This document shows positions 9,751 through 62,955 of a stretch of 64,000 bases of DNA, piece after piece (position 1 is the stretch's first letter; every line of letters starts with the position of its first letter). The notes beneath the pieces were generated by a model, which saw nothing but the letters and a program-made list of their open reading frames with translations, searched no databases and was not told the origin of the DNA. Location of the stretch: positions 1,024,001 to 1,088,000 of the forward strand of contig OZ241981.1 of the NCBI GenBank assembly GCA_965204345.1, read 5' to 3'. The translations under genes and the position numbers were made by a program. The stretch is from Nitrosopumilus sp. GTDB taxonomy: Archaea; Thermoproteota; Nitrososphaeria; Nitrososphaerales; Nitrosopumilaceae.

Positions 9751-11415
9751 ATGAATTTGCCTGAACCCATGAATAAGCAATTTTCAAGCTTGATGGATGA
9801 TGTGTCTTCGGGCAGATTAAAAATACCACAGTTTCAGCGGGATTTTGTTTGGGACATAAAAAAATCAGCAAGTTTGTTAGACAGTATCATAAAAGGATAT
9901 CCGGTTGGAACTTTTATTTTCTGGAAGACAAGAGAACGACTTCGATCTGTAAAAGACATAGGGAATTTGAATTTGCCTGAACCTGAGAAAGGGGATTATG
10001 TGAATTTTGTACTTGATGGCCAACAAAGAATAACAAGTCTATTTGCAGCACTAAAAGGTGAAACCATCAGACGAAGCAATGGAAAGGAGGAAGATTTTTC
10101 AAAAATCTTCATCGATCTAGAAGCCAAAGAAGATGAGAAGATCATAACAACAGAAATACACAATAAAAATGAGGGGCAAATAATCAAGTTAGAAACTCTT
10201 CTGTATGGAGGCCTGACAGTATTGTCAGATTATGATTCCAGATATCATCAAAGGTTAGACGAATACAAAAAGAGAATACAGTCATACAACTATTCAGTTA
10301 TTCAAGTAAATAATGTGCCTATTGATGTAGCTACAGAGATTTTTACGAGGATAAACGTAGGAGGTAGACCCCTTTCATTATTTGAGATAATGGTAGCCAA
10401 GACCTATGATTATGATAAGAATTTTGATTTATCAGAGAAATTCGATGCCATGATAGAAAAGCTAGATGATGTAAATTATGAAACGTTATCAGATGCAACC
10501 ATACTGCAGGTCATTTCTCTCATACTAACAAAGGAATGTAAGCGTAAAGTCATTTTATCACTAAAAAAAGAGGACATAATTGAAATCTGGGAGGAGGTCA
10601 TGGATGCTATAGAAAGAACAGTAGATTATTTTAGAAATTATTACCGAATTCCTGTTTCTAATTTGTTACCCTATAACGCTCTGATAGTGCCTTTTGCTTA
10701 TTTCTTCTACAACCATAAAGACAAACCAATAGGAAATATGCAGAAATATCTAGAAGACTTTTTCTGGAGAATTTCATTATCTGGCAGATATTCTTCTGCT
10801 GTAGAAAGCAAGCTTGCCCAAGACACAAAGCGAATTGATAAAATTCTAAATGCAGAATTGCCTGAATATGATTGGGCAATAGATAGATCTGCAGAATACA
10901 TCAAACATAATGGATGGTTCAGTGCCGGAAGAAGCTACATCAAAGCGATTCTTTGCATTTATACATATTATCAACCCAAGTCTTTTGTTGACAATTCTCT
11001 TGTTAACATAAACAATGATTGGCTCAAACAAGCAAATAGCAAAAATTATCATCATTTTTTCCCAAAAGCATATTTAAAGAAATTAAATGAAAGTGAAGAA
11101 AAGATCAACCACATTTTGAACATTACTATTGTGGACGACTTTCTAAATAAGAGAAAAATCAAGCAGAATCCTCCTTCAACATATATGGAGGATTTCAGAA
11201 AAAACAATCCTCAGCTTTCTGAAACTATGAAGACACATCTAATAGACGACTTGGATAATTTTGGAATATGGATAAATGATTATCAAAGGTTCATAGACAA
11301 ACGAGCAAGAAGAATATCCGAAGAAATTGAAAAAAGAATCATCAGGCAGGAGATCGATAAACAGCCTCAACCAGAATTGTTGGAAGATTATTCAGAAGTA
11401 ATAGAAATAGAATGA
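9751..11415 (+). CDS. DUF262 (GmrSD-like) nuclease with C-terminal HNH-like domain
   Basis: IPQFQRDFVW, LDGQQRITSL, IFTRIN and NYHHFFPK motifs. Confidence 0.88.
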   Translation: MNLPEPMNKQFSSLMDDVSSGRLKIPQFQRDFVWDIKKSASLLDSIIKGYPVGTFIFWKTRERLRSVKDIGNLNLPEPEKGDYVNFVLDGQQRITSLFAALKGETIRRSNGKEEDFSKIFIDLEAKEDEKIITTEIHNKNEGQIIKLETLLYGGLTVLSDYDSRYHQRLDEYKKRIQSYNYSVIQVNNVPIDVATEIFTRINVGGRPLSLFEIMVAKTYDYDKNFDLSEKFDAMIEKLDDVNYETLSDATILQVISLILTKECKRKVILSLKKEDIIEIWEEVMDAIERTVDYFRNYYRIPVSNLLPYNALIVPFAYFFYNHKDKPIGNMQKYLEDFFWRISLSGRYSSAVESKLAQDTKRIDKILNAELPEYDWAIDRSAEYIKHNGWFSAGRSYIKAILCIYTYYQPKSFVDNSLVNINNDWLKQANSKNYHHFFPKAYLKKLNESEEKINHILNITIVDDFLNKRKIKQNPPSTYMEDFRKNNPQLSETMKTHLIDDLDNFGIWINDYQRFIDKRARRISEEIEKRIIRQEIDKQPQPELLEDYSEVIEIE

Positions 11416-12306: not shown

Positions 12307-12401
12307 TGTATATTTTATGTAATTAATCCCTCTTTAGAAGAAAGAACACATACATAAATTATGTATATTTTATGTAACTAATCTCTCTTTAGAGGAGAGA
12401 A
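12307..12401. promoter_or_regulatory. two 40-bp direct repeats (36/40 identical, period 55) plus a palindrome upstream of the AbiEi-like gene
   Basis: 12307-12346 vs 12362-12401; ATACATAAATTATGTAT palindrome between and overlapping them. Confidence 0.7.
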
Positions 12402-12403
12402 AG

Positions 12404-13228
12404 GTGACACAAAATATACGATTAGGATCACAAGAAAATAAGCTACTATTCAGCTTGGAAACGAAGAAAATAAGCGTCTTTACCTTCAGTGATGCCCGAA
12501 ATATTCTTCAAGGAACCGATTCTGCAACATGGAATGTAATTGGAAGGCTGAAAAAAAAGAAGAGATTACAAGAGATAGAAGGCGGAAAATATCTTCTAGT
12601 ACCAGCTAGAGCTGGTCTTGAAGGATATTGGTCTGAGGATCCTTGGCTAATCGTACCTCAGCTAATTGATGAATATTATGTAGCATTTTGGACTGCAATG
12701 AACTTTTGGGGCATGACAGAGCAGATACCATACACTGTTTTTGTTGCAACTCCAAAAAGAAAGAAAAAACGAATCTTAGAATTTGGAAATCAAAAATTCC
12801 AATTTGTAACTATATCAAAAAAGAAATTTTTTGGGCATGTTGAACAAAAAATAGGAAAAAATAATCATTTTTACATTTCCTCTAGAGAAAAAACAATTGT
12901 GGATGGATTAACTCATCCAGAATATTGTAGTGGAATAGTGGAGGTAACAAAAGCAATGTGGAATTCACGAAGAGAAGCTGATTGGAAAACCATTCTTGCA
13001 ATGGCAAAGAAAGTAGAGATTAACGTGGTTTTACGCAGATTGGGATACCTATTAACGGTTCTTAACATAGAGAAAAATATCTCCTCAAAAATTAAAAAAG
13101 AGATAGTTTGTTATCCTTATAATTTTCTTGATCCTACAACGGCCAAAATCAGAATTTCGTATTCAAAGGATTTTGGATTAATATTGAATAGAACTAGAGA
13201 CGAACTAACAAGCTGGATGGAGTATTAG
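12404..13228 (+). CDS. AbiEi-like type IV toxin-antitoxin antitoxin / regulator
   Basis: N-terminal wHTH, YYVAFWTAMNFWGMTEQIP, SREKTIVDGL, RRLGYLL motifs. Confidence 0.85.
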   Translation: MTQNIRLGSQENKLLFSLETKKISVFTFSDARNILQGTDSATWNVIGRLKKKKRLQEIEGGKYLLVPARAGLEGYWSEDPWLIVPQLIDEYYVAFWTAMNFWGMTEQIPYTVFVATPKRKKKRILEFGNQKFQFVTISKKKFFGHVEQKIGKNNHFYISSREKTIVDGLTHPEYCSGIVEVTKAMWNSRREADWKTILAMAKKVEINVVLRRLGYLLTVLNIEKNISSKIKKEIVCYPYNFLDPTTAKIRISYSKDFGLILNRTRDELTSWMEY

Positions 13229-21281: not shown

Positions 21282-21716
21282 TTATGTCCGCCTAAGCTCA
21301 GGCTTCAGGTAAGGGATTATTACCGCATATACCGATCATGAATAATGAAGAGGACTAGACTAAAGGAGGACCAGATCAGATACATCATACGGCAACGTCA
21401 GAAGGGCACAGGTGCAGCAATTCTGGCCTGGACCATGCAGATCAGCGCAAGACACGTCAGATACATATGGGCAGCTTACCACAAGACCAGAACAATACGC
21501 CCCCACAGAAGATCAGGAAGATCCAGAAATACAATATTGTGGTTGAATATCTTTACTATTGCATCCTCCCACGCCCACAGAAGATCAGGAAGATCCAGAA
21601 ATACAATATTGCCTGAGGATGTATGTCGTGTTCTTAAGACACCTGATGGCTCTGGGCCAAAAAGGTTCCTGATGCGATCAGGAAAAGCAATCAAAAATGG
21701 ATGGAGGCGGACATAA
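21282..21716 (+). mobile_element. internally deleted IS481-like remnant
   Basis: HTH N-terminus KEDQIRYIIRQRQKG...ISARHVRYIW; 12-bp inverted repeats TTATGTCCGCCT (21282-21293) / AGGCGGACATAA (21705-21716). Confidence 0.65.
21502..21611. repeat. 38-bp exact duplication flanking a 34-bp insert
   Basis: 21502-21539 = 21574-21611; insert 21540-21573. Confidence 0.95.
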
Positions 21717-22007
21717 ATGACTAGCGGATATGATTTTCATATAATACAACAGTGTCGATAAATGAAAGGCTATAATAAAGAACGTAAGTAAATTGTACTG
21801 TACTGTACTGTAATGTTATTTACTCCGTACCGTACTATAGCTCAGGCGAGAAGGAAATTATTATATTATCATTTTGTAAGTTATAAATTATGAATAAAAC
21901 ATCCCCAAAAGATTGGACAGATGACCAAATTAAAAAAGCATCAGAGATTAAAAAGAAATTCCAAGAAGGAAAAGTCAAAGTATTAGCAAAATAATTGTAC
22001 TAAGGAT

Positions 22008-22238
22008 ATGCCTGACGACTACGATATATTTGATACATGTATTATTGATGATCCTTCTAAAGATATTAAAGTAATTATCAAAAAATATGTTGAAAATGAA
22101 TTTAATTATGCTGATCCCAATATTTGCAAAAATGAGCATGAAATTGGTAAAAATTACATCCCTGAGGAGAACATAACTTTATTTTGGATTAATTTGGACA
22201 AAAGATATTTCTTTGATGTTCAAAAAGGTAATCAATAA
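22008..22238 (+). CDS. hypothetical protein (possibly truncated)
   Basis: 76-aa ORF at the island edge. Confidence 0.4.
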   Translation: MPDDYDIFDTCIIDDPSKDIKVIIKKYVENEFNYADPNICKNEHEIGKNYIPEENITLFWINLDKRYFFDVQKGNQ

Positions 22239-22308
22239 TTCACGACTATAACCCGACTGAAAACACTAAGAATTTTGTTCCCATAAACTACATAGAATCG
22301 TTTGAATT

Positions 22309-22923
22309 ATGAGCAAGGTTTTTAGTGATTTTAGAGATAACATTTTTGTGAATAGCAGGATTGTGATTCTGGTTTTGGTTGGAATTGCAGTAGCAACATC
22401 AGTAGCAATAGCAGCAACAACAAGCACAACCACTAAAGAGCCTCCAGCAGAGAATCCAGATGACAAGTCAGTGCCAGAACAGCCCGTACCGCCAGATATC
22501 CAAAAAAAGCTAGACGATGTGACAAAAACAAAGTTGGAAAACAAGTATTCCCCAAAACAGAGGGACTGGCCCACATCCGGACCGTTTCAGATTGACAGAA
22601 GTGAGTATATTCTAGGTGAGAAAATTTTTCTCATAATCGGCCAGTTAGACCCTAATGAAAAGGGAGAAGTTGTGTTTCTTAGGCCATCAAACAGCACACA
22701 CTATGCAGTTTATTGGAAGATCCCTTTTGATGGTGCAGATAATGCAGTATTCAACAATTATTTACAGCCACAACTCTCAAAATCCCAAGGGTACTGTACA
22801 GCAGATGCCTTCATCGGGGATTGGAGGGTTGTGTTTTCACAAACAAACTATGCCAATCTAGAATTCAAAATTACCGGAGACATTCTTCCCGGAGATGAGG
22901 AAAACTATGAGCCAGTCTGCTAG
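22309..22923 (+). CDS. membrane-anchored hypothetical protein
   Basis: N-terminal TM helix and soluble beta-rich domain. Confidence 0.75.
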   Translation: MSKVFSDFRDNIFVNSRIVILVLVGIAVATSVAIAATTSTTTKEPPAENPDDKSVPEQPVPPDIQKKLDDVTKTKLENKYSPKQRDWPTSGPFQIDRSEYILGEKIFLIIGQLDPNEKGEVVFLRPSNSTHYAVYWKIPFDGADNAVFNNYLQPQLSKSQGYCTADAFIGDWRVVFSQTNYANLEFKITGDILPGDEENYEPVC

Positions 22924-23250
22924 TTATCTCAAAGAGTTGTGAAAGCAGACTTTATTGCCCAGATGGCAGGCAGGACCGGAGGGTTCAACAAGGTAGATAA
23001 CTGCATCTGAATCACAGTCAACTAGGATTTCCCTGATTTTTTGAGTGTTGCCAGACTCTTCACCCTTCATCCAGAGTTTGTTTCTAGAGCGACTCCAAAA
23101 CCAAGAGTTTCCAGTCTTTTTTGCAAGTTCCAGTGATTCCTTGTTTGTGTAGGCTAGGGTCAGAACGTCTTTTGTGTTTGCATCCTGAACAATCACAGGT
23201 ACAAGGCCCCCACTCTTTTCAAAGTCTATATCGCCAACTGATTTGTCCAC
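22924..23250 (-). CDS. hisI: phosphoribosyl-AMP cyclohydrolase
   Basis: SRSRNKLWMKGEESG, DCDSD, ACHLG...CF. Confidence 0.95.
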   Translation of the reverse strand: MDKSVGDIDFEKSGGLVPVIVQDANTKDVLTLAYTNKESLELAKKTGNSWFWSRSRNKLWMKGEESGNTQKIREILVDCDSDAVIYLVEPSGPACHLGNKVCFHNSLR

Positions 23251-23273
23251 AAGAAAAATCTGTAAAATAGCTA

Positions 23274-24077
23274 TTATAACCTTACAGGGATTTGTCGGTT
23301 TTTCAGATATGACTTTACGCTGTTTACCCCGTGGGTTTCATAGTGAAAGATTGAGGCGGCAAGTGCGGCATCAACGTCTGATTCTGTAAAAACGTCAACC
23401 ATGTCATCAGGCCTCCCACAGCCTCCTGAGGCAATAACAGGTATGGAGAGTGACTCAACAACCTTTTGTGTCAGCAAGATATCATACCCGTCTTTTGTTC
23501 CATCATTGTCAATGCTGGTAAGAAGAATTTCCCCGGCTCCCAGTCTTTCGGCATTCTGAACCCAGTCAATCACGTCAATTCCGGTACCCTCTTTGCCGCC
23601 ATAAATGAAGACCTCAAACCAGAATTGCCTGTTGTTTTCAGCAAAGACATTTTTTTTCTCTGCAATGTCGTAATTGCGTTTTGCATCTACTGCCACCACA
23701 ACGCATTGGCGTCCAAACAACTCCATTAGTTCCGTGATAACCCCGGGATTTTTTATCGCACCGGTATTAATTCCGACCTTGTCTGCGCCGTTTAGCAAGA
23801 TGTTTCTTGCATCATCCAAAGAGTTTACCCCGCCGCCTACCGTAAACGGTATGTCAATTACAGAGGCCACCCTTCTAACCAAATCCTGAATCGTCTTTCG
23901 CCGCTCATCAGATGCAGTAATATCAAGAAAAACCAGCTCGTCTGCACCCTCGTTGCTGTACCTTTCTGCCAGTTCCACGGGATCCCCTGCATCCCTGATG
24001 GACTCAAAGTGCAGTCCCTTAACCACCCTGCCGTTTTTTACATCCAAGCATGGAATGATTCGCTTAGTCAGAGTCAT
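23274..24077 (-). CDS. hisF: imidazole glycerol phosphate synthase cyclase subunit
   Basis: RIIPCLDV, GADELVFLDI, DGTKDGYD. Confidence 0.97.
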   Translation of the reverse strand: MTLTKRIIPCLDVKNGRVVKGLHFESIRDAGDPVELAERYSNEGADELVFLDITASDERRKTIQDLVRRVASVIDIPFTVGGGVNSLDDARNILLNGADKVGINTGAIKNPGVITELMELFGRQCVVVAVDAKRNYDIAEKKNVFAENNRQFWFEVFIYGGKEGTGIDVIDWVQNAERLGAGEILLTSIDNDGTKDGYDILLTQKVVESLSIPVIASGGCGRPDDMVDVFTESDVDAALAASIFHYETHGVNSVKSYLKNRQIPVRL

Positions 24078-24781
24078 GATAACCCTTTTGCGCCTTTTAT
24101 TGAAATTCTGTTCTCATAGAGTGCCTTTCCAAGTATTACGCCAAACGCGTTTTTTTCCTTTACAGACTTGACATCATTACTATTAGAGATCCCCCCGCTT
24201 GCAATTACATTGGCATTTGGCAGTGCACATGCCTGCCCCAGAAATTCCAAGTCAGGTCCCTCAAGTGTTCCATCACGGCCAACATCAGTTAGTAAAAATT
24301 CAGTAAATCCCATATCAAGGAATTCCCTGATTGCAGGTATTAACTTAATTCCGGTGCCGGCCTGCCAGCCATGTATTACAATCTCATTATCCTTATGATC
24401 AACTGATATTACAATTTTTTGCGGCCCAAGTTCTGACAAGAGTGCCTGCAGGAGGGGCCTGTCCTTAAATGCCAGGGTCCCAAGTACAATCCGCTCTGAA
24501 AGACGGGCCATCTCAAGGGCAAGTGATCTGCTTCGTAGTCCTCCTGCCACCTGCACAGGTATGGATATGACTCTGAGAATTTTTTTAATCATGTCTAGGT
24601 TAGAGCCTATGCCAAGAGTCGCATCCAAGTCCACCAGGTGAAGAATGTCAGCCCCTGCTGATTCCCACCGTTTTGCCATCTCTACAGGATTGTCACTGTA
24701 CACTGTCTTTTGGGCGGGATCGCCCTTGTACAGTCTGACTACTTGGCCACCCATTAAATCAATAGCAGGTATGACTTTCAT
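24074..24781 (-). CDS. hisA: ProFAR isomerase
   Basis: VIPAIDLMGGQVVRL, HLVDLD, DGTLEGPD. Confidence 0.96.
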   Translation of the reverse strand: MKVIPAIDLMGGQVVRLYKGDPAQKTVYSDNPVEMAKRWESAGADILHLVDLDATLGIGSNLDMIKKILRVISIPVQVAGGLRSRSLALEMARLSERIVLGTLAFKDRPLLQALLSELGPQKIVISVDHKDNEIVIHGWQAGTGIKLIPAIREFLDMGFTEFLLTDVGRDGTLEGPDLEFLGQACALPNANVIASGGISNSNDVKSVKEKNAFGVILGKALYENRISIKGAKGLS

Positions 24782-25383
24782 TTCTTACACTCTTTTAGGA
24801 AATTATTTAGCATTATCTTCCCTGCCGCACTTGACTTTTCAGGATGAAACTGCGTGCCAAAAAAATTCCCATGCTCAACAACTGCCGGAACTTTGATTCC
24901 GTAATCAGATTCGGCAGTAATCACATCAGGGGAGTCAGGCTTGACTCTGTATGAGTGGACAAAATAGGCCCAAGAGCCATCTTTTACTCCCTCAAGGATT
25001 TTGCCGGGTTTTTTGATTTCAAGGCTGTTCCATCCCATGTGGGGCACTTTCATAGAGGCAGGCAGCACTATGACTTGGCCGTCAATTACATTGAGGCCCT
25101 CCTGTACACCTTCCTCACTCTTTGCAAAAAACATCTCCATCCCAAGACAGATTCCAAGAACGGGCATGTCTCCCACGTAATCTTGGAACTGTGTTTTGGA
25201 AAAATTCCTGATGCTGTTCATGGCAGGATCAAAGTTTCCCACGCCCGGAAGCAACAGGCCAGAGTATACGTTTGCACTATCAAAATTAGTTATCACATCA
25301 ACTGTGGCACCAACTTTTTGAAGGGAATTTTTCAGGCTAAAGATATTTCCGGCACCATAGTCAAAAATTGCAACGCTGACCAT
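24778..25383 (-). CDS. hisH: imidazole glycerol phosphate synthase glutaminase subunit
   Basis: LPGVG, GICLGM, PHMGWN, QFHPEKS. Confidence 0.96.
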   Translation of the reverse strand: MVSVAIFDYGAGNIFSLKNSLQKVGATVDVITNFDSANVYSGLLLPGVGNFDPAMNSIRNFSKTQFQDYVGDMPVLGICLGMEMFFAKSEEGVQEGLNVIDGQVIVLPASMKVPHMGWNSLEIKKPGKILEGVKDGSWAYFVHSYRVKPDSPDVITAESDYGIKVPAVVEHGNFFGTQFHPEKSSAAGKIMLNNFLKECKK

Positions 25384-25973
25384 TACATCGAGCCCTTTGT
25401 GCTTGGAATCCCCTTTTGTTTTTTGTCTATGGCAGATGCATGTCTTAGTGCGACTGCAAGTGATTTTATTGCAGCTTCGACCTTGTGGTGATCATTGTCC
25501 CCATACTTTACGGTAAGGTGGATGCAGCTGTTGAGATTCTGCAGCAGCGACTGGAAAAAATGCTCGAGATCCTCTTTTGATACGCCCTCAATCTTGTTAC
25601 GCTTGACATGCAGGCTCAGCTTTGAGAATGGCCGCTTTACCAGATCAATGGAGGCCTCAGCAAGGGATTCGTCCATCGGGACAGAGGCATAACTGAATCT
25701 TGCAATTCCACCCCTAGAGCCCAGTGCCTTGTCAATGGTTTGGCCCAGTGCAATTGCAGTGTCCTCAATTAGATGGTGCTCAATGCCGTCATTTGACTTT
25801 GCCTCGACCCTGAGATCCATCATGGCATGCTTGCCAAAAGACACAATCAGGTGATCCAGGAAGTTTATTCCGGTCTTAATTGATGTCTTTCCAGTTCCGT
25901 CCAGGTTTGCAGACACGCAAATGCTGGTTTCCTTGGTGTCCCGTTTAGTTGATGCCTTTCTTGGTGTTGCCAT
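25383..25973 (-). CDS. hisB: imidazoleglycerol-phosphate dehydratase
   Basis: [23 protein letters not shown]. Confidence 0.96.
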
Positions 25974-26000
25974 GTTATCACAGATATGATGTATTATGCA

Positions 26001-26987
26001 TCACTCTAAATTTAATACCTTTGGCAGCAGGTGGATTGAATCCAATGCCAGGATGGCACCGTTTTGCTCAAATAGCTGTAATTTTTCTTGTGGATTTGTG
26101 CTAGTACCCACAATGCCACAAAAGACAGTCTTGTGACCCAATTCAGTGGCCTTTTTTGCCATGATAAAGTCCTCCATAGAATCACCAACATACAAAGTGA
26201 ACTTGCCATCCATTCCACAGATTGAATCCACAAGAGGCTGTGGGTTGGGCTTTGCAAGCTCGCGCGGTTCATCCTCAAGAAACACAGAGTTGCCAAGATT
26301 GAACTTGTTGAGCAGGGATTTTAGGGAATATCTGACTGATTCCTGGCCTCTGCCTGTAACCATGGATATCCTTGAGGGAAATTTTTTTAATAGCCGATCA
26401 AGTAATGCGTCATTTAGAATTACGTCGTCCTGCTCGATTAGGCCGGGTTTGGAAAAAACTAAAGGTTTTTTTTGAAATAATTTTTCATACAGTGCAGGGC
26501 CGTAAAAAATCTGATCAAAGATCTGATACAGTATACTTTGATGATGCGCTATTCCAGGATAAGACAGTTGTCTTTTGATCTCACTGATATCAACTAGACT
26601 CTCAACATATCTTTGTGCAGAAACAATGCCGTCAGAGTCAGAGTTCTCAATTACATCACAGATAAAGCTGGCCTGATCTTTTTCTAGTTTTGCTGCACCG
26701 ACAATAGAAATTATTGCAGCATATGTCAGATCAACCTCGTCATTAAAGCCGCCCGTAGACTTGAACCCGTCAATAATTTTAAAAAAATCAAAGTCAACTG
26801 CATCATCAATTTTTGCAAGGTTCTTTAAGACATATCGAGTCGTTTTGATAATTGTCAGATCATAGGATTTTGTAATATCAATTAGTACCCCATCGCAGTC
26901 AAAGACCACAGTATCTATCTGGTGCAGTGCCGCATCAATTTTGGAGGAGTTCACATAGATTCCGTCAGATTTTTTGCTCAGAGTCAT
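26001..26987 (-). CDS. HAD-family phosphatase in the his operon (candidate histidinol-phosphate phosphatase)
   Basis: FDCDGVL, KPNP, YVGDSMED; located between hisC and hisB. Confidence 0.75.
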   Translation of the reverse strand: MTLSKKSDGIYVNSSKIDAALHQIDTVVFDCDGVLIDITKSYDLTIIKTTRYVLKNLAKIDDAVDFDFFKIIDGFKSTGGFNDEVDLTYAAIISIVGAAKLEKDQASFICDVIENSDSDGIVSAQRYVESLVDISEIKRQLSYPGIAHHQSILYQIFDQIFYGPALYEKLFQKKPLVFSKPGLIEQDDVILNDALLDRLLKKFPSRISMVTGRGQESVRYSLKSLLNKFNLGNSVFLEDEPRELAKPNPQPLVDSICGMDGKFTLYVGDSMEDFIMAKKATELGHKTVFCGIVGTSTNPQEKLQLFEQNGAILALDSIHLLPKVLNLE

Positions 26988-28054
26988 CCCAACAAGTCAC
27001 GAATTGCCAATAAGAATTTTGAGTTCATCTCTTTTGTTCCAACAGTTACTCTAAGACAGCCATTGTGATTGCCGATTTTGCCCAGCTTGCGAATCGAGAT
27101 TCCCTGTTCTACAAGTGCCGAATAGACGCGCTTGTAGGCACCGTGGGCATCAAAAAGGACAAAGTTGGCCTCAGAGTCAAACACCTCAAAGGCATCATAT
27201 CTTTGCAAGGTTTCAATGATTCTGGTCCTTTCAGTTCTGACATTACTGATGGCCTCCCTTACGATATGAGATTTCTCCAAGGATTCAATTCCGGATTCAA
27301 TTGTAATAGTGCCAAGGGGATACGGATACTGCAAGACATTCATGAAGGCCTCGGTGAATTTTTTATTGGCAACAAAGTAACCCAGTCTCAGTCCTGCCAG
27401 GCCAAATGACTTTGAGAGCGTATGTACAACAACCAGGTTGTTTTGGGTCTTGGCCATGCTTGAAAGGGAATACCTGCCAAATTCCCCGTATGCCTCATCA
27501 ATTATTACAAGGCCGGCAAAGGATCTCACAAGCTTTTGTAGCTCGCTTTTTGGGAATTGAAATCCCGTAGGATTGTTGGGAGAATCAAGATAAAGGATGC
27601 TGGCCTTTCTGGATTGTCTTATGAAATCCTCAATATCCAACTTCATATCATCAGAAAAGGGGATTGCAAGTAACGGAATGCCATATAGCTTGCAGCGTTC
27701 CTCAAAAAATCCAAACGTAGGATTGGAGGTCAAGACCTTGGTCTTTTTGGATGCAAAGTTAGAAAGAATCAGATCCAAAATTTGATCCGAACCGTTGCCT
27801 ACGCCAATCATTGAGGCAGGCATCTTGGCAAGCTTTGATATGGCAAGTACCAGTCTCTCAACGCCGCCAAGGGGGTACTCTCGTATGTCAGAATTTTTTC
27901 TTGCAGATGAGATTACATCGTTTTGAAATTGTTTTGGCACAACGTAATTTTCATTTGAATCAAGCTTTACTGAATCCTGGATGAGATCAGGCTTTTGGTA
28001 TCCGCCTATGGAGTCAAGCCTCTTGATCCTATCCTCAAGCCAATTCTTTTTCAA
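26984..28054 (-). CDS. hisC: histidinol-phosphate aminotransferase
   Basis: PNNPTG, DEAY, TLSKSFGLAGLRLGY. Confidence 0.93.
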   Translation of the reverse strand: MKKNWLEDRIKRLDSIGGYQKPDLIQDSVKLDSNENYVVPKQFQNDVISSARKNSDIREYPLGGVERLVLAISKLAKMPASMIGVGNGSDQILDLILSNFASKKTKVLTSNPTFGFFEERCKLYGIPLLAIPFSDDMKLDIEDFIRQSRKASILYLDSPNNPTGFQFPKSELQKLVRSFAGLVIIDEAYGEFGRYSLSSMAKTQNNLVVVHTLSKSFGLAGLRLGYFVANKKFTEAFMNVLQYPYPLGTITIESGIESLEKSHIVREAISNVRTERTRIIETLQRYDAFEVFDSEANFVLFDAHGAYKRVYSALVEQGISIRKLGKIGNHNGCLRVTVGTKEMNSKFLLAIRDLLG

Positions 28055-29328
28055 TCCAGTCTACCTCTTACTGCCTCATAGTGGTTGGGTAAGCCCTCGG
28101 CATCTGTTAGGGCTTTGAGATGTCTTGATATTTTTGATAGTGACTTTTTTGACGAGGTAACGCAGGTGTTTACCTTGACAAAGTCCAAAACGGAGAGCGG
28201 ACCTCGGATTCTTCCAAATCCGTTTGTGGGAAGAATGTGATTTGAGCCTAAAACATAGTCACTGGCAGATGAGGGCGTGTTATTTCCAATTAGGATCAGT
28301 CCAGGAGAGGTAATTTTTGCAGACATGGATTGCGCATTTTTGGTCATTACTTGCAGGTGTTCTGGTGCCAAGATATTTGCAAGTTTTATCATATCAGAAT
28401 TGGTTTTACAGATTCCAATAAATCCATTATTTTTGAGGCTGGAGGAGGCGATGTCTCTGCGTTGGACCGTAGAAATCAGTTCTGAGATTATACTCTCAAC
28501 TGATCGTGCAAGTTTTAACGAGGTGGTAAGCAGATAGCAAAAGGTATCACTGCTGTGTTCTGCCTGAGAGATTAGATCCAATGCGACAAACTTTGGATTT
28601 GCAGACGCATCTGCAATGATTCCCAACTCGGTGGGACCTGCAAGCATGTCAATTCCTGTCTGGTTGCTGACCAGGGATTTTGCAGCAGTAACAAACGCGT
28701 TACCTGGGCCGACTATCTTATCAACCCTCAAGATAGATTTTGTCCCATAAGCTAGTGCGGCAATGGATTGCACGCCGCCTGTCTTGTAGATTTCATTGGC
28801 GCCGCAGATATCGGCAGCAACAACTGTCAGGGGGTCAATCTTTCCATCAGGGTCTGGTGGGGATACAACAACTATCCTCTTGACACCTGCAATTTTAGCC
28901 GGGGTTACAGACATGACTACGGAGCTGGGATATCTTGCCAGCCCGCCGGGAATATAGCATCCCACGCTCTGAATGGGGGTAAAGGTCTTTGAAATTTTTA
29001 CTCCGTCATGGCTAATCGTCTTGCCCCCTAGAAGCGATTTAACAGCAGATTCCTCCGTCTTGGCAAGCCTGGCTTTTGCCAGTCTTAATGCAACAAGTTG
29101 AGTCTTTGAAACTTTAGAGTATGCACCTCTGATCTCGTTTTGGGATACGCGCAAAGACGAGATGACTGCCTTGCTGAACTTTTTCTCATACCTTTTAACG
29201 GCATCATCGCCATTTTTTTTGACGTTCCTTAGGATGGATTCAACTATCGCCTTGTTGTCTTGGGGCTGTCTTGGCGTGATTTTTTCTGCAAACTTTTCAA
29301 CATTGGATACTTTGATTATTCTCATCAA
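28051..29328 (-). CDS. hisD: histidinol dehydrogenase
   Basis: KIVGPGN, AGPTE, SQAEH, APEHL. Confidence 0.96.
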   Translation of the reverse strand: MMRIIKVSNVEKFAEKITPRQPQDNKAIVESILRNVKKNGDDAVKRYEKKFSKAVISSLRVSQNEIRGAYSKVSKTQLVALRLAKARLAKTEESAVKSLLGGKTISHDGVKISKTFTPIQSVGCYIPGGLARYPSSVVMSVTPAKIAGVKRIVVVSPPDPDGKIDPLTVVAADICGANEIYKTGGVQSIAALAYGTKSILRVDKIVGPGNAFVTAAKSLVSNQTGIDMLAGPTELGIIADASANPKFVALDLISQAEHSSDTFCYLLTTSLKLARSVESIISELISTVQRRDIASSSLKNNGFIGICKTNSDMIKLANILAPEHLQVMTKNAQSMSAKITSPGLILIGNNTPSSASDYVLGSNHILPTNGFGRIRGPLSVLDFVKVNTCVTSSKKSLSKISRHLKALTDAEGLPNHYEAVRGRLD

Positions 29329-30308
29329 TTTTCTTCGTCACGCTTTATCTCCTCAAGTTCAAGTATTTGTCTTGGTTCATGAACCACAAGACCCTGAGCA
29401 ATCTTCCTTAGCTTGGGAATGAGTTTATGGAACTCTTCTTTTTTAATCACCGTGTTTACGCCAAACCACCCTTCCTCGCTTAGCGGGCTGATGGTGGGCT
29501 TTTTTAAAGACGGCATCTGTGTCAAGAGCTTTTTTAGGTTCTTCTCCTCCACATTCAGATAGATGTGCAGGAATTTTCTGCCATAGACTGCACCCCTCAT
29601 CAACGTAATGATATCAAATATTTTTTCCCTCTTTTTGGAATCCTTTAACGACTTTTTGTTTGCAATCAGGTGTGCAGTGGAGGTCAGCACTTGATCAACA
29701 ATCTTGAGTTTGTTTTGTTTAAGGGTGGTTCCAGTCTCAGTGACGTCCATAATTGCATCAACGTCTTCGGGGGGTTTTGCCTCAGTTGCGCCAAATGATA
29801 AGTGAATCTGGACGCTTTTGTTATCTCCCAATCTGACCCAGGGAGTGACAATTAGCGGATCTTGGGATCCATAATATTTTTTGTAAGACTGAGACTGCTT
29901 TAGAAATTTGGAAGCAGTGGTAAGATACTCTGATGAGATTCGAAGCGTCTTTTTCTTTTTGCCATAGTCTGCAATCATTTCATCAAGATTTTTGTAACGA
30001 TACTTGTCAGGAAAGGCAATCACTAGCTTGATTTTTCCATATTCCAAATCCAAGACAGGCTCAACATCAGAGTTTGTCTCCTTTACCCAGTCCTTGCCTG
30101 TAATTCCCACATCATACAGTCCCTCTGCAACCAGCGTGGGGATTTCTTGGGGGCGCAGCATCTTTACAATAATGCTGGGATCATCCAGATAAACCCGATA
30201 TGTTCTGCTTTTTCTGTTTACCCTAGTCCAAGACTTTTCTAGCAATTTGAAAGTGGCATCCTCAAGACTGCCCTTTGGAATAGCAAATTTTACTTCAGAC
30301 ATTCTCAA
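29325..30308 (-). CDS. hisG: ATP phosphoribosyltransferase
   Basis: AIPKGSL, DVGITGKD, DVTETGTTL. Confidence 0.95.
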   Translation of the reverse strand: MRMSEVKFAIPKGSLEDATFKLLEKSWTRVNRKSRTYRVYLDDPSIIVKMLRPQEIPTLVAEGLYDVGITGKDWVKETNSDVEPVLDLEYGKIKLVIAFPDKYRYKNLDEMIADYGKKKKTLRISSEYLTTASKFLKQSQSYKKYYGSQDPLIVTPWVRLGDNKSVQIHLSFGATEAKPPEDVDAIMDVTETGTTLKQNKLKIVDQVLTSTAHLIANKKSLKDSKKREKIFDIITLMRGAVYGRKFLHIYLNVEEKNLKKLLTQMPSLKKPTISPLSEEGWFGVNTVIKKEEFHKLIPKLRKIAQGLVVHEPRQILELEEIKRDEEN

Positions 30309-30340
30309 TTTTTTGACTTTTTAGGTATATAATCGCATGT

Positions 30341-31606
30341 TTAGATTTGCTCAAGCAGCTCTTTGGCCCTCTCAAGTGAGATGTTCTTTTCTTCAATCAT
30401 TTTTTGAACGATTTGATCTATTTGATCAGGTGTGGCACCATCACCGGCAGCTGCTGCGGCCAGGTTTCTTGCATGAAGGCGCATGTGTCCTTTTTGTATT
30501 CCTTCAGTTGAAAGGGCCCTGATTGCACTGTAGTTTTGGGCCAGCCCGGTGGCTGCCATGACACATGCAAGTTCTTGTGCAGAACCGACCCCCAAAATTT
30601 TGGCACATACCTTTGCCACAGGATGGACGTTTGCAATCCCGCCAACAATGCCAACAGAAAGAGGAATCTCCAAGGTTCCAACCAGATCTCCATTACCATC
30701 CTTGCTCCATCTGCTTAGGGAACGGTATCTTCCGGATTGTGCAGCATATGCATTTGCTGCAGCCTCAATAGCCCTGCTGTCCTGACCGACGGCATTTGCA
30801 ACAGCTATGGTTCCATTCATGATACCCTTGTTATGAGTCACTGCCCTGTACACGTCATTGTCTGCAAATTCAAACGCAGAGACAATATTATCAACTACAT
30901 CCTCACCCCCCACGGCCTCTTTTTCAAACACAGCTCTTGCCTTTGCCATTCTTCTGGTGGAATAGTTTGAGAGTATGCGCAGCAGTGCTCGCCCGCCGGT
31001 AATCTTTTCAATTAGCGGAGAGACTGCCTCACACATGGTATTAGTTACGTTTGCACCCATTGCATCGCCTACATCAATTAGCAGTTCGACAATCAGCATT
31101 GTCCCGGACGGGGCATTGATTTCTTTGCAGGAAACTTTTTTGGCGCCCTTGCCCATCTTTGATAGTGTGTTGCTTTTGGAATTTGCCAGCTGTAGAATGT
31201 CATTTGCGGAATTTTTTATCTGTGAAATTGCCAAGGATGAGTCAGCGTCTAGAATCTGTATTTGGCCAATGCTAAAGGACTCATCGGCTGTTGCCTCAAA
31301 GCCGCCCTTGATTCGTGCTATCTTTGCTCCCTTGGATGCAGCAGCTATTACAGAGGGCTCCTCAATTACCATCGGAACCACATAGTCCTTTCCGTTGATT
31401 CTAAAGTTGGTGGCAACTCCCAGTGGAAGTGAAAATGTTCCAATGGCATTCTCTACCATCCTGTCAGCTTTTTCAAAGGAGATTCCGCCATTATCGCCCT
31501 GTAAAATCTTTAGTTCTTCAGGCGTAAGGCTTGCAAAGTCTGCGACAATGTCTAGCCTCTCCTTTCTGGACTTTTCAAAAAACTTTGAAACTGATGAATC
31601 AGGCAT
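30341..31606 (-). CDS. mvaA: class II HMG-CoA reductase
   Basis: EEPSVIAAAS, DAMGAN, HNKGIMNG, GIQKGHMRLH. Confidence 0.95.
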   Translation of the reverse strand: MPDSSVSKFFEKSRKERLDIVADFASLTPEELKILQGDNGGISFEKADRMVENAIGTFSLPLGVATNFRINGKDYVVPMVIEEPSVIAAASKGAKIARIKGGFEATADESFSIGQIQILDADSSLAISQIKNSANDILQLANSKSNTLSKMGKGAKKVSCKEINAPSGTMLIVELLIDVGDAMGANVTNTMCEAVSPLIEKITGGRALLRILSNYSTRRMAKARAVFEKEAVGGEDVVDNIVSAFEFADNDVYRAVTHNKGIMNGTIAVANAVGQDSRAIEAAANAYAAQSGRYRSLSRWSKDGNGDLVGTLEIPLSVGIVGGIANVHPVAKVCAKILGVGSAQELACVMAATGLAQNYSAIRALSTEGIQKGHMRLHARNLAAAAAGDGATPDQIDQIVQKMIEEKNISLERAKELLEQI

Positions 31607-31607
31607 T

Positions 31608-32699
31608 TTATTTTAATATCCTCAACAGTTTATCATCCATGCTGTCTGGAAAACCTTTTCCATCCGTATTTGAAGTAATTACATAAAGGCTGCCGTCCTG
31701 GCCTTCTGCCACATCCCTGACCCTGCCTATGCCACTGAGTATTGACTTTTGGGAGCTTAGGCCCTCATCAAAGTCTAATTGGTATAGGTTGGCAGCCCGC
31801 AGAGAGGCCATAATAAATGAGGACTCAAAATCCAGAGAGTCCCCCGAGTAGTGTAGGATACCGCCAGGTTCAATACTTGGATCATAGCAAAGAATGGCCC
31901 CTTCAAAATTCTCATCTCCGGAACATTGCTGTTCAGGCCATCCATAGTTCTTACCTGCTTGAACTAGGTTGATCTCATCGTTTTTTTCTGGTCCAAACTC
32001 TGCCACAAACATGTTTTGATTGGCATCCCAAGTCATTCCCTGAGGGTTTCGGTGTCCTAGCGAATAAACCGGGGAATCAGAAAAAGGATTGTCCTCAGGG
32101 ATGGTGCCATCATCGTTTAGTCTTAAGATTTTTCCTGACAGGGACTCAAGATCCTGTGGAAGATGAGATGCATCAGAAACAGTTCCTGTTCCCACGTACA
32201 GCTTGTTATCAGGTCCAAACTTCATAAAGCCTCCATTTGTAAACGAAGATCCGGGGATTTTATCCAAGATTGTCTTGGCATTAACAAGTTTATTATCAGA
32301 TTCGGTAATTTGGAGAATTTTGTTCCACAGCTTGTCATCTTCCTCATAGGTCAAAAACACATACAGTTTATGATTGGCAGAAAAGTTTGGATGCAACGCT
32401 ATTCCCAACAATCCGCCATCAAAGACATCAGCAGTACGTAATGTGGTCAAAGGCGATTCTAACAGTGTGCTGTTTTGTATGACCCTGATTTTTCCATCTT
32501 TTTCAGTTACAAAGATTCGATCATCGGATATGGCAATGGCACGAGGCTTGTTGAGATTCTCAGCCAGTACAGTTACAAAAGCATTCTCAGGAGTCGAGTT
32601 TGGTTCAGGCAAGGGTATGGGATCATCAGGAGACGTCAAGACCAATACAGAAAATGCAATGGCGACAACAATTGCGCCAATCTGGATTCTTTTATCCAT
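31608..32699 (-). CDS. PQQ-dependent sugar (glucose/sorbosone) dehydrogenase-like protein
   Basis: GLLGIALHP, GKILRL, GHRNPQG, GKNYGWP. Confidence 0.88.
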   Translation of the reverse strand: MDKRIQIGAIVVAIAFSVLVLTSPDDPIPLPEPNSTPENAFVTVLAENLNKPRAIAISDDRIFVTEKDGKIRVIQNSTLLESPLTTLRTADVFDGGLLGIALHPNFSANHKLYVFLTYEEDDKLWNKILQITESDNKLVNAKTILDKIPGSSFTNGGFMKFGPDNKLYVGTGTVSDASHLPQDLESLSGKILRLNDDGTIPEDNPFSDSPVYSLGHRNPQGMTWDANQNMFVAEFGPEKNDEINLVQAGKNYGWPEQQCSGDENFEGAILCYDPSIEPGGILHYSGDSLDFESSFIMASLRAANLYQLDFDEGLSSQKSILSGIGRVRDVAEGQDGSLYVITSNTDGKGFPDSMDDKLLRILK

Positions 32700-32780: not shown

Positions 32781-32855
32781 AGCGGGGTGGGGAAGCCAGG
32801 TCATCCCGGCGGGCTCATAACCCGCAGTTCAGTAGTTCAAATCTACTCCCCGCTA
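32781..32855 (+). tRNA. initiator tRNA-Met (CAT)
   Basis: AGCGGGG/CCCCGCT acceptor with A1-U72, GCGGG-CTCATAA-CCCGC anticodon arm, GTTCAAATC T-loop. Confidence 0.95.
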
Positions 32856-32862
32856 CTACCAG

Positions 32863-39702: not shown

Positions 39703-40047
39703 ATGGATTTAGATAAAATACAAAAGGTACAAGATCTGATTGACTCAGGCAGGGGAGACATGGGAAGAAATGAATTTATTTTAAATTCACTTCAAAATGG
39801 AAAGAAACTATACAATACAGATATACTGTATCTCAAGATTCAGACTCAAAAGCTAGATGAGAAGATAGTATCACTGCAACCCTCCAAAAAGAAGCCAAAA
39901 AGAGAGCCTGCATTAAGCGATGATGAGATTGACAAAATTTTAGCAGAACATGACAAAAAATATGCACAAAAGAAGAAAATCCCCCAAGAACCAATGCCTA
40001 AAAATACAGTTAGAGCCAAAATAAAGAATTTCTTTTCAAGAAACTAG
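39703..40047 (+). CDS. hypothetical protein
   Basis: 114-aa ORF with clean ATG. Confidence 0.7.
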   Translation: MDLDKIQKVQDLIDSGRGDMGRNEFILNSLQNGKKLYNTDILYLKIQTQKLDEKIVSLQPSKKKPKREPALSDDEIDKILAEHDKKYAQKKKIPQEPMPKNTVRAKIKNFFSRN

Positions 40048-40049
40048 AT

Positions 40050-40156
40050 GTAATGTAATATCAATTTCTTTTTTCTTGTTGTACCCAAACAGTATCATCT
40101 CGTACCGGTGCCGCCACGTAGTAATGTAATATCAATTTCTTTTTTCTTGTTGTACC
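40050..40156. repeat. 36-bp exact duplication flanking a 35-bp GC-richer insert
   Basis: 40050-40085 = 40121-40156; insert 40086-40120. Confidence 0.95.
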
Positions 40157-40347
40157 AGCAATAATCTCTGCCTTGCTTGGTTACCCCTTGGCTTTGTTCT
40201 AAGAGCCATTCCACAACAGGGACAGTTGGTGCCATCCCAATGTATGAAAATTTCACAAGAGGTGCAACGCTTTTGGCCAGATCTGTACCTTGTCTCTCCA
40301 ACCTTTTTTAGTGCTCTATATCTTGTGCAGATTCCACGACAGGGCAT
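40132..40347 (-). CDS. small Cys-rich zinc-binding protein
   Basis: CRGIC, CTSC, CPCC; paralogue pseudogene at 16637-16852. Confidence 0.8.
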   Translation of the reverse strand: MPCRGICTRYRALKKVGETRYRSGQKRCTSCEIFIHWDGTNCPCCGMALRTKPRGNQARQRLLLVQQEKRN

Positions 40348-40386: not shown

Positions 40387-41259
40387 TTATCTTTTTTTGA
40401 GCCAGTCAGACAAAATCTTGTTTGCCATCTGATCAGGATTCACATTGTTTTTGCTTGCATGTTTTTTTAATTTTCTTGCAGCACCCTTTGTCAACTCAAG
40501 TTTGATTTTTTGTTGCAGCATGCGGGATTTTGCAATTTTTAATAATTTTTTATGGGATGACTTTGGACTGCGAGCCAATACACGCAGGTATTCTTTTCGG
40601 AGCTTTATGTCCAATGGGGCTATTTTTTGTATAATGTTTTCAATTTTTTGGATGTTGGAGACTATTTGGTATAGTTTGGTGATATCATCACGAGAAATTT
40701 CTTGTGGGACATACTGTCTTAATCTATCTGGAACCGCTGCAAATCCAAGGTATTTCTTTAGGGTCTGGGATGAAATTCCAAGGGATTGTGCGGCCTTTGA
40801 CTTGCCAGTTTTTTCAGTCAAGAAGACACATGCAGCAGTCATATCTCTGGTATTCATCTTGTTTCTGTGCAGGTTTTCGACTACCGATGCTGCCTTTGCA
40901 TCCTCAAGATCATACTTTGAGGAGTTAGTTAATAGCAATACGGGAATTTTCTTTGCCCTCAGCCTCTTGAGAGCTGCCAGCCTTCTTTGGCCGGACATCA
41001 GGAGATAGGAATTTTTTGCTTCCTTTTGGACCATTGGAGGATTTTGCAATCCCTCATTTTTGATAGAGCGTGCAAGCTCGGCAATCCCTTCTTTGTCTAG
41101 TTTTCTGGCCTGAGCCTGCCTCCATACTTTGATGTATTTGATTGGAATCTCAGTTAGCCTGTAATTGATCTTAGAATTGTAACGTTTAGCCACGCTAACT
41201 TGCGGGATTGATTTTTGATAAAACATGCTAGCTGTAATTAGTTGACAAAAAACAGACAT
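40387..41259 (-). CDS. ParB/Spo0J-like protein
   Basis: LARSIKNEGLQNPP...SGQRRLAA...ENLHR ParB/Srx motifs plus HTH. Confidence 0.88.
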   Translation of the reverse strand: MSVFCQLITASMFYQKSIPQVSVAKRYNSKINYRLTEIPIKYIKVWRQAQARKLDKEGIAELARSIKNEGLQNPPMVQKEAKNSYLLMSGQRRLAALKRLRAKKIPVLLLTNSSKYDLEDAKAASVVENLHRNKMNTRDMTAACVFLTEKTGKSKAAQSLGISSQTLKKYLGFAAVPDRLRQYVPQEISRDDITKLYQIVSNIQKIENIIQKIAPLDIKLRKEYLRVLARSPKSSHKKLLKIAKSRMLQQKIKLELTKGAARKLKKHASKNNVNPDQMANKILSDWLKKR

Positions 41260-62907: not shown

Positions 62908-62955
62908 TATATGTAGTTAAAAAGTATAGTATATATGTAGGTGAAAAGTATAGTA
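62908..62955. promoter_or_regulatory. tandem 24-bp repeat upstream of the zinc-finger gene
   Basis: TATATGTAGTTAAAAAGTATAGTA / TATATGTAGGTGAAAAGTATAGTA. Confidence 0.6.

Follow-up and report, generated by a model that had tools for sequence, protein, structure and literature searches.

CRISPR adaptation inserts spacers into arrays, and off-target integration by its integrase, Cas1-Cas2, has so far been studied mostly with over-produced enzyme in E. coli or in vitro. In the E. coli type I-E system, over-produced Cas1-Cas2 together with supplied oligonucleotides reportedly generated neo-CRISPRs, for which the natural evidence, in two other species, was described as circumstantial (Nivala, Shipman & Church 2018, Nat Microbiol). 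The Cas1-Cas2 of Pyrococcus furiosus was reported to use, in vitro, off-target sites that have a few features in common with repeats and to make two attacks a repeat length apart (PMC6698737), and ectopic acquisition in Streptococcus thermophilus was reported at genuine repeats within the array (PMC7999890). We analyzed a 64,000-nt stretch of Nitrosopumilus sp. DNA (the window), which corresponds to C1:1024001-1088000 of a genome, G000, of 2.12 Mb in 9 contigs with a contamination estimate of 3.49%. Since the genome carries archaeal amoA, the host is an ammonia-oxidising archaeon. The window contains an isolated repeat-insert-repeat unit, scar no. 2, between two convergent genes. We conclude that scar no. 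2 is very probably an off-target (non-canonical) spacer integration by the host's own type I-B-derived Cas1-Cas2(-Cas4) module, and most likely one of some thirty stray insertions across the genome.

The host units share with the neo-CRISPRs of Nivala et al. a spacer-sized fragment at a non-CRISPR site, duplication of a repeat-length target to give a repeat-spacer-repeat structure, and a choice of sites biased to sequences resembling the leader-repeat junction. In contrast to the experimental system that this report describes, the host case is natural, archaeal and type I-B-derived with a stagger of ~36 bp, and it comprises dozens of fixed events, many in frame within genes and one in cas1, in a genome where no effectors were found. 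As for P. furiosus, an archaeal integrase would have acted alone, with full-site integration in non-CRISPR DNA and preferred border bases; however, the products of that in vitro plasmid assay had a spacing of ~30 bp, whereas those of the host are fixed in a wild genome at ~36 bp (PMC6698737). Integration away from the leader-proximal repeat is common to S. thermophilus and the host, but the targets of the host are unrelated chromosomal sequences rather than genuine repeats, except for one off-register event in a mini-array (PMC7999890). Each host unit has one spacer and a repeat found in no other unit, and would therefore escape array finders that rely on a common repeat. This distinguishes the units from the orphan and mini arrays attributed to Shmakov et al., which are reportedly short and remote from cas genes and some of which are said to have been proposed to arise de novo by off-target integration. 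Casposons also use a Cas1-family integrase that creates a target duplication. However, they are kilobase elements bounded by terminal inverted repeats, and their duplications are short; the host units show none of this. Casposon duplications measure ~14-15 bp, and the elements encode a polymerase.

Scar no. 2 is composed of two exact copies of a 36-nt direct repeat, with a start-to-start period of 71 nt, on either side of a 35-nt insert (coordinates in Table 1). At a GC content of 0.543, the insert is richer in GC than both the repeat (0.25) and the genome (0.387). Beyond the edges of the repeat, comparison at the same 71-nt shift gives identity at the random level (4/25 and 6/25 positions), indicating a sharp-edged duplication around unrelated DNA and not a decayed tandem repeat. 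Copy 2 comprises the last 22 coding bases of a minus-strand gene of 71 amino acids (aa), its stop codon (40132-40134) and 11 bases downstream, and the gene is therefore intact. Its C-terminus, including the residues LLLVQQEK, agrees with that of the orthologue in the same-genus relative G009 (82% aa identity). The unit is a single repeat pair, and its repeat sequence is unique to it. This anatomy had been described in the first-pass annotation of the stretch, from the exact duplication around a GC-richer insert to the duplicated last codons, stop and 11 downstream bases that leave the gene intact, and all of it held on re-examination. The annotation had also recorded that the dimensions nearly match those of a second unit in the window, scar no. 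1, and they do so closely (36 + 35 and 38 + 34, periods 71 and 72).

Units of this kind form a series along the chromosome. When non-tandem direct repeats with periods of 40-130 were collected, 49/67 had periods of 68-76, peaking with 20 hits at 72, compared to ~0.2 repeat hits per period elsewhere in that range; note that the 67 hits include canonical array units and a few tandem-like false positives. In a stricter scan over the same periods, limited to isolated, exact repeats of at least 31 nt with inserts of at least 20 nt, 27/34 units had periods of 66-79. Our curated set comprises 21 independent exact units, of which one is in the array and 20 are ectopic; it leaves out later copies (C1 1410373, 1413971, 1424895 and 1848731), the regular units of the canonical array and the hits with periods of 79 to 81 (250576, 1829816 and 1881277). 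The duplications of these units have a mean length of 36.9 nt (median 38, range 31-42), their inserts a mean of 34.6 nt and their periods a mean of 71.5. All 21 have sharp edges, the flank identity at the same shift averaging 25.8%. Around ten more units, with 1-5 mismatches between the repeats, are presumably older; such degenerate units were kept out of the set of 21 and entered the reading-frame analysis only. Over successive 400-kb segments the genome yielded 5, 4, 3, 8 and 7 hits, and the stray units outnumber the spacers of the host's array (20 curated units vs 5 spacers). A mismatch-tolerant scan also catches diverged 25-residue protein tandem repeats of period 75, which mimic the spacing of the units, and we therefore relied on exact repeats and the flank-identity check.

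Scar no. 1 lies in frame within a 123-aa open reading frame (ORF) of a multi-copy element resembling an insertion sequence, which has well over a dozen other copies in the genome (80-89% identity over the main piece). Paralogous copies of the element, for example at C1:1000900-1001212, contain the target of scar no. 1 once and have no insert. Three tandem 3.6-kb related elements (C1:1406775, 1410373 and 1413971) each hold an identical other unit, indicating that this unit was copied after integration. At C1:486264-486486, a tRNA gene has two independent units next to its 3' end, spaced 113 nt apart. A paralogue at C1:253432-253580, also present on contig C6, contains an old unit with a repeat of ~41 nt carrying 5 mismatches, a 33-nt insert and a period of 74. 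Nearby, at C1:250490-250720, there is a third repeat copy in an atypical geometry (period 79, a 52-nt shared stretch and a 27-nt insert), which may represent a second, off-register hit in a neo-repeat, i.e. a two-spacer proto-array. Contig C6 (35 kb) duplicates C1:246-253 kb and contig C8 carries the unit of C1:905180; both contigs are probably strain variants or assembly redundancy.

The genome contains one Cas1-family match, which belongs to a cas1-cas2-cas4 cluster on the minus strand beside the mini-array. The repeat of the mini-array ends ATTGAAAC (minus strand) and has a conserved core of 34 nt. The cas2 and cas4 genes are intact, and cas1 is split. Orthologues of this Cas1 were found in 6/61 genomes of the genus (49-61% identity over the C-terminal fragment, with intact frames of 331-364 aa) and some Cas1-like match in 25/61; Cas4 as a query for related loci had no match in genome_contigs. 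Large arrays lie beside 5/6 of the Cas1 orthologues, with a repeat of 36 nt in four relatives and 37 nt in G401. The array of relative G053 has 10 periods of 70, 33 of 71, 19 of 72 and 3 of 73-75, and that of G320 has 2 of 69, 36 of 70, 47 of 71, 30 of 72, 9 of 73 and one of 75. The modal canonical unit is thus 36 + 35 = 71, the dimensions of scar no. 2. The 36-nt duplication has the length of the cognate repeat, and the insert has the length of the cognate spacer (71 - 36 = 35 nt) and is unrelated to its flanks. The first-pass annotation had attributed the unit to a ruler-type, Cas1-like integrase writing at non-CRISPR sites and would have given up this view for a lineage without Cas1 or casposase. 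The match to the CRISPR unit of the lineage, together with the Cas1, Cas2 and Cas4 encoded by the genome, supports it.

As controls, the first 400 kb of each of four relatives were scanned for exact repeats and flank identity. G002, where the Cas1 query had no match, contained no isolated exact repeats. G320, which has an intact module and a 126-repeat array, gave 3 hits, all of them period-75 protein tandem repeats (flank identity 10-20 of 25) and none sharp-edged. In G018, also without a match to the Cas1 query, we found five period-75 protein repeats and one sharp-edged 37+35 unit. G053, with an intact module, contained two sharp-edged units (37+36 and 36+35) and, far from its cas locus, an orphan pair of the canonical-type 37-nt repeat; a further 35-nt repeat with a period of 69 lies just past its array. 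The unit positions in relatives are G053:C1:61661, G053:C1:381767, G053:C1:43914, L019:16658 and G018:C1:134676. The sharp-edged units of G053 and G018 show that the phenomenon is not unique to the host genome, although it is much denser there, and stray events also occur with a complete system, as in G053. The period-75 false positives, encoding 25-residue protein repeats, are located at G320:C1:166000-166500, 333862-334000 and 388797-389300 and at G018:C1:45464-53100 and 276139-278600. Sixteen hits from the mismatch-tolerant scan of G320 were rejected as units, being protein tandem repeats or too degenerate.

A different enzyme of the ruler type, whether an integrase or a transposase (a casposase, for instance, or one not yet described), might have produced the units, or these might be the footprints of small transposons; we consider this highly unlikely. 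Relatives do encode Cas1-like proteins of ~560 aa outside the orthologous cas1 group of 330-360 aa, which by their length and weak Cas1 similarity only may be casposase-like, and the 37+35 unit of G018 occurs where the Cas1 query found nothing. However, the only Cas1-family match in the host genome is the cas1 beside cas2, cas4 and the array, and the geometry equals that of the cognate CRISPR unit. The inserts are unrelated to each other, save in units later copied with their surrounding repeats, and are thus not copies of one element. A transposon, MITE (miniature inverted-repeat transposable element) or casposon footprint was rejected, as the inserts share no sequence and the duplications measure 31-42 nt.

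The operon of G053 encodes, in this order, a 553-aa protein, Cas7 (Csh2), Cas5b, Cas3, a 215-aa protein, Cas1, Cas2 and Cas4, followed by the array, which is a type I-B-like layout. When its proteins were compared to the host genome by tblastn, only Cas1, Cas2, Cas4 and a 123-residue remnant of the 215-aa protein were recovered; the Cas8-like, Cas7, Cas5 and Cas3 proteins had no match. Family searches of the host genome with Cas6_C, RAMPs and DevR/Cas7 were negative, other Cas6 families not being included, and Cas3_HD gave a single weak HD-domain match (22 bits) elsewhere in the genome. As far as these queries show, the host system appears to have lost its effector genes and kept its adaptation genes. 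The 123-residue remnant (C1:1884292-1884660) is located ~2 kb from the mini-array and adjoins a 563-aa ORF with a phage-integrase domain (L010:4556-6247), which possibly marks how the effector genes were lost. Scar no. 2 itself, a single unit with a unique repeat, does not qualify as a functional CRISPR array, for which we looked to several copies of a shared repeat, a leader, crRNA processing by Cas6 and effector genes. Because no Cas6, Cas7, Cas5, Cas3 or Cas8 was found, processing of scar no. 2 or interference by it is unlikely, and we regard it as a fossil and not as a working CRISPR locus. Thus, the term nascent neo-array, applied to the unit in the first-pass annotation, is apt for its structure only.

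We next consider the target sites, reading the 42 junctions of the 21 curated units 5'-3' on the attacked strand as flank/duplication. G was present at position -3 in 26/42 junctions (background 0.194; p = 1.8e-9) and T at +2 in 23/42 (p = 0.0013), accompanied by C or G at -2, T or C at -1 and an A-rich segment from +4 to +7. The host's own leader-repeat junction reads ...gaGGCT/CTGAATAGAA (with the leader end also written ...gGCT/CTGAATAG), and the leaders of relatives end gACT/ or tGCT/. Both outer junctions of scar no. 2 resemble a leader-repeat junction: ctaGAT/GTAATG at copy 1, with G at -3, and attGCT/GGTACA at copy 2 (minus strand), where GCT/ is the host's own leader end. Compared to the leader end and both repeat ends, the 20 ectopic targets matched at 12.9/34 positions, vs 10.6 ± 2.3 for 20,000 random sites (p = 9e-6), and with the test one base out of register p was 0.56. 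This preference agrees with the off-target sites reported for P. furiosus Cas1-Cas2 in vitro (PMC6698737). Off-register use of a target, a sign of an imprecise integrase, is also seen in the mini-array, where the leader-proximal (newest) unit, C1:1886549-1886660, has a 40-nt duplication consisting of the last 27 nt of the repeat and 13 nt of an older spacer.

To trace the inserts, all were compared to the host genome by BLAST and the donor alignments were inspected. Six inserts copy other loci of the same chromosome (Table 1). Of the six donors, three belong to ordinary genes that could be named, i.e. an NFACT-family gene, trpA and a UPF0182 gene. The donor alignments set the true spacer length at ~34-37 nt and that of the duplication at ~35-38 nt. 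For the insert of scar no. 2, BLAST found no second match in the host genome; none of 400 other family genomes matched with up to 3 mismatches allowed, and there was no exact match in viral_contigs and no phage or plasmid record at E <= 1. The unit was first taken to hold a foreign fragment, to be sought in virome data. The capture of short fragments is borne out by these results, but a foreign origin is unproven, with no donor found for scar no. 2 and six sister inserts derived from the host chromosome. In sum, scar no. 2 has every structural feature of a neo-CRISPR that we tested for except a traceable donor.

Copies of distant chromosomal loci can also be left as filler DNA, and in two units 4-5 nt of identity between donor flank and target are reminiscent of microhomology. 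A replication or repair accident, by template switching or by filling of a staggered double-strand break, nevertheless seems even less probable than a different integrase. It offers no reason for a fixed duplication of ~36-38 nt with an insert of ~35 nt in more than 20 independent events, nor for junctions whose motif agrees with the end of the CRISPR leader, and the control genome G002 was without units in 400 kb.

The integrase gene is itself a target. The Cas1 of G053 could be aligned to the host cas1 locus over 346 residues without a change of frame (58% identity), and the sole lesion is a 24-codon insertion, in which 'VIKIKPYQKHYA' occurs twice around a segment with two in-frame stops. 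With cas1 now broken, the integration process has probably stopped. Elsewhere, survival of the units depended on the reading frame. Among 31 units (21 exact and 10 degenerate), 10/18 with a period divisible by 3 lie within a spanning open frame of at least 100 aa, the cas1 unit not being counted, compared to 0/13 with other periods (p = 0.0013); for exact units only, the values were 5/12 vs 0/9 (p = 0.045). Periods divisible by 3 were found in 12/21 units vs 53/190 canonical units of the relatives (p = 0.011). Frame-breaking units are located only between genes or at gene ends that are regenerated by the duplication. In unit C1:486377, for example, the duplication holds the last ~21 nt of a tRNA gene, so that the end of this gene is regenerated, as scar no. 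2 does for the 71-aa gene. Selection has filtered the stray units by their reading frame.

Among 41 genomes searched, the locus orthologous to scar no. 2 was found in one relative, G009 (L003). The flanking genes are conserved there (aa identity 70% for the 114-aa and 82% for the 71-aa protein), and a DUF3800-like ORF then follows the gene pair, as in the window. In the DNA alignment, G009 has the target once and no insert, with a 65-column gap opposite the insert and the second copy; note that the region is AT-rich and 72-77% identical in nucleotide sequence, and a few other indels blur the exact value of 71. The single copy that the first-pass annotation had proposed to look for at orthologous loci is thus present in G009.

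The empty site bears directly on the alternative offered in that annotation, by which an element integrated by a site-specific recombinase would have left again, with its duplicated attachment (att) sites remaining. We hold this to be very improbable. The ParB-like and DUF3800 genes nearby give the region a mobile-element-like character, and the genome contains tyrosine-recombinase genes, for example near the cas locus. However, when a site-specific recombinase excises an element, one att site is restored and no unrelated filler of 35 nt stays behind, whereas scar no. 2 has such a filler between its repeats. At least 20 other units with different repeats have the same 35-38 + 33-37 geometry, and the six inserts copied from the chromosome, including from ordinary genes, do not fit the loss of an element. 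Nor does G009 carry a large element of the kind that would have spoken for att sites: there is nothing between its two genes.

Scar no. 2 is present in natural populations. The stretch was found in 13 listed runs from 4 studies, comprising sponge metagenomes of 2010, 2019 and 2024 and runs labelled as an organism, and we examined the locus in contigs from four public runs, one per study. In each of the four, a 95-nt piece spanning the insert (40056-40150) was present without differences and at the depth of the flanks, and the 36-nt repeat formed a separate contig piece at ~2x flank depth. The flank positions 39940, 40029 and 40312 differed from the window in 3/4 runs, indicating that the unit is common to slightly different strains. 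A joint skipping the unit was not found in the contigs of the four runs; as rare variants are lost from contigs, an empty allele may still exist at low frequency. Despite the 9 contigs and the estimated contamination of the assembly, we give practically no credence to an assembly artefact or a chance repeat, as the insert is spanned at flank depth and the repeat is at about double depth in runs from four studies, an exact 36-mer repeat at 71 nt is negligible by chance and the period histogram is sharply peaked.

Several observations weigh against an origin of the units by Cas1-Cas2 of the host's CRISPR type. The duplication lengths of 31-42 nt are looser than in canonical arrays. Six sister units have a traceable donor, but in the collections searched scar no. 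2 has none, and the flanks of the six donors share no common motif that could serve as a protospacer adjacent motif, the sample being too small. In the same units, mismatches between insert and donor (6/199) exceed those between the repeats (1/229; p = 0.053), which a model of spacers from the cell's own chromosome and of the same age alone does not predict; this hints that some donors may have been sister-strain DNA rather than the cell's own copy. The data linking the units to this CRISPR type come from 5 genomes, only 400 kb having been sampled in 4 of these, a set too small for testing an association: G320 had no unit in its sample despite an intact module, and G018 had one unit despite no Cas1 match to the query. 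Finally, with cas1 interrupted, present activity of the module cannot be claimed.

The anatomy, the empty site, the geometry, the genes of the module, the self-derived sister inserts, the junction motif and the hit in cas1 are observed directly; Cas1-Cas2 as the catalyst, and the order of events, are what we infer from sequence. For scar no. 2, the integrase, loaded with a prespacer of ~35 bp, would have attacked ordinary chromosomal DNA on both strands at points ~36 bp apart, a stagger equal to the spacing that its ruler normally measures across a CRISPR repeat, with the length of the prespacer setting that of the insert. The attacks would have fallen at two short junctions resembling the leader-repeat junction (G-N-N/N-T). 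Gap repair would then have duplicated the 36 bp between the nicks, creating a repeat-spacer-repeat structure in the 3' overlap zone of the convergent genes. As the duplicated segment held the 3' end and stop of the 71-aa gene, the insertion left this gene whole, was tolerated and became fixed.

Table 1. Positions of scar no. 2 and its flanking genes, of other features of the window and the host genome, and of the six traced donors. Positions without prefix are those of the window.
Feature	Position	Strand	Remarks
Target-site duplication, copy 1	40050..40085		orphan duplicate of the minus-strand gene's 3' end and stop with 11 bases downstream
Spacer-like insert, 35 nt	40086..40120		GC 0.54; absent at the orthologous site of G009
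Target-site duplication, copy 2	40121..40156		functional copy of the 71-aa gene's 3' end, with its stop codon
71-aa Cys-rich (zinc-ribbon-like) conserved gene	40132..40347	-	ORF; no Pfam family
114-aa convergent gene	39703..40047	+	ORF; no Pfam family; stop 2 nt before copy 1
Scar no. 1	21502-21611		38-nt duplication, 34-nt insert, period 72
tRNA-Met	32781-32856		
Mini-array	C1:1886281-1886667		six repeats, 5 spacers; periods 68-72
Unit inside cas1	C1:1888134-1888243 (L010 about 10134-10243)		38-nt duplication, 34-nt insert, period 72
Unit with traced donor	C1 330574		donor 1275229-1275264; 34/36
Unit with traced donor	C1 486264		donor 262049-262083; 34/35
Unit with traced donor	C1 500922		donor 964067-964098; 30/32
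Unit with traced donor	C1 1385280		donor 174508-174541; 33/34
Unit with traced donor (leader-proximal mini-array unit)	C1 1886549		donor 1209418-1209449; 32/32, exact
Unit with traced donor	C1 1947301		donor 1288999-1289028; 30/30, extendable to 39

ParB-like and DUF3800 genes are located near scar no. 2. The 3' part of the ParB-like gene (window 40393-40800) is 97% identical to C1:1003768-1004177, 60 kb away, and this second copy suggests that the neighbourhood of scar no. 2 belongs to a repeated or mobile region. Within the window, positions 22001-32000 have a GC content of 0.41-0.46, vs 0.29-0.37 in the preceding 22 kb, and a run of minus-strand ORFs. Two tandem pairs, a 55-nt pair at window 12307-12416 (80% identity) and a 24-nt pair at window 62908-62955 (92% identity), are unrelated to the CRISPR-like units.

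Considering the genome as a whole, we think it rather likely that cas1-cas2-cas4 outlived the effectors of a decayed type I-B system and long acted as an endogenous, size-ruled insertional mutagen in this sponge-associated ammonia-oxidising archaeon. The module would have written dozens of 35-nt fragments chromosome-wide, at least some of them from host genes, added 22-25 residues in frame to about ten ORFs and seeded single-spacer proto-arrays, one of them maybe hit twice, before it finally inactivated itself through cas1. Loss of the effectors would remove the autoimmune penalty for self-derived spacers.

A literature search of titles and the starts of abstracts returned no such report for ammonia-oxidising archaea or sponge symbionts. 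Provisionally, we regard several aspects as new: the scale of the process in nature, its setting in a type I-B system of an archaeal, sponge-associated ammonia oxidiser, the survival of units in frame inside genes, spacers taken from self DNA and the insertion into cas1. For genome annotation there is a practical warning, in that such units are invisible to CRISPR finders and may be mistaken for att sites or tandem duplications. Within a single lineage, three questions become directly testable: what adaptation costs in fitness, which sequence rules an archaeal type I-B integrase follows, as seen in a natural target-site logo, and how CRISPR repeats are born de novo. If true, the reading of the module as an insertional mutagen would provide natural evidence that CRISPR adaptation has a self-limiting mutagenic cost and can seed new arrays as well as protein insertions.

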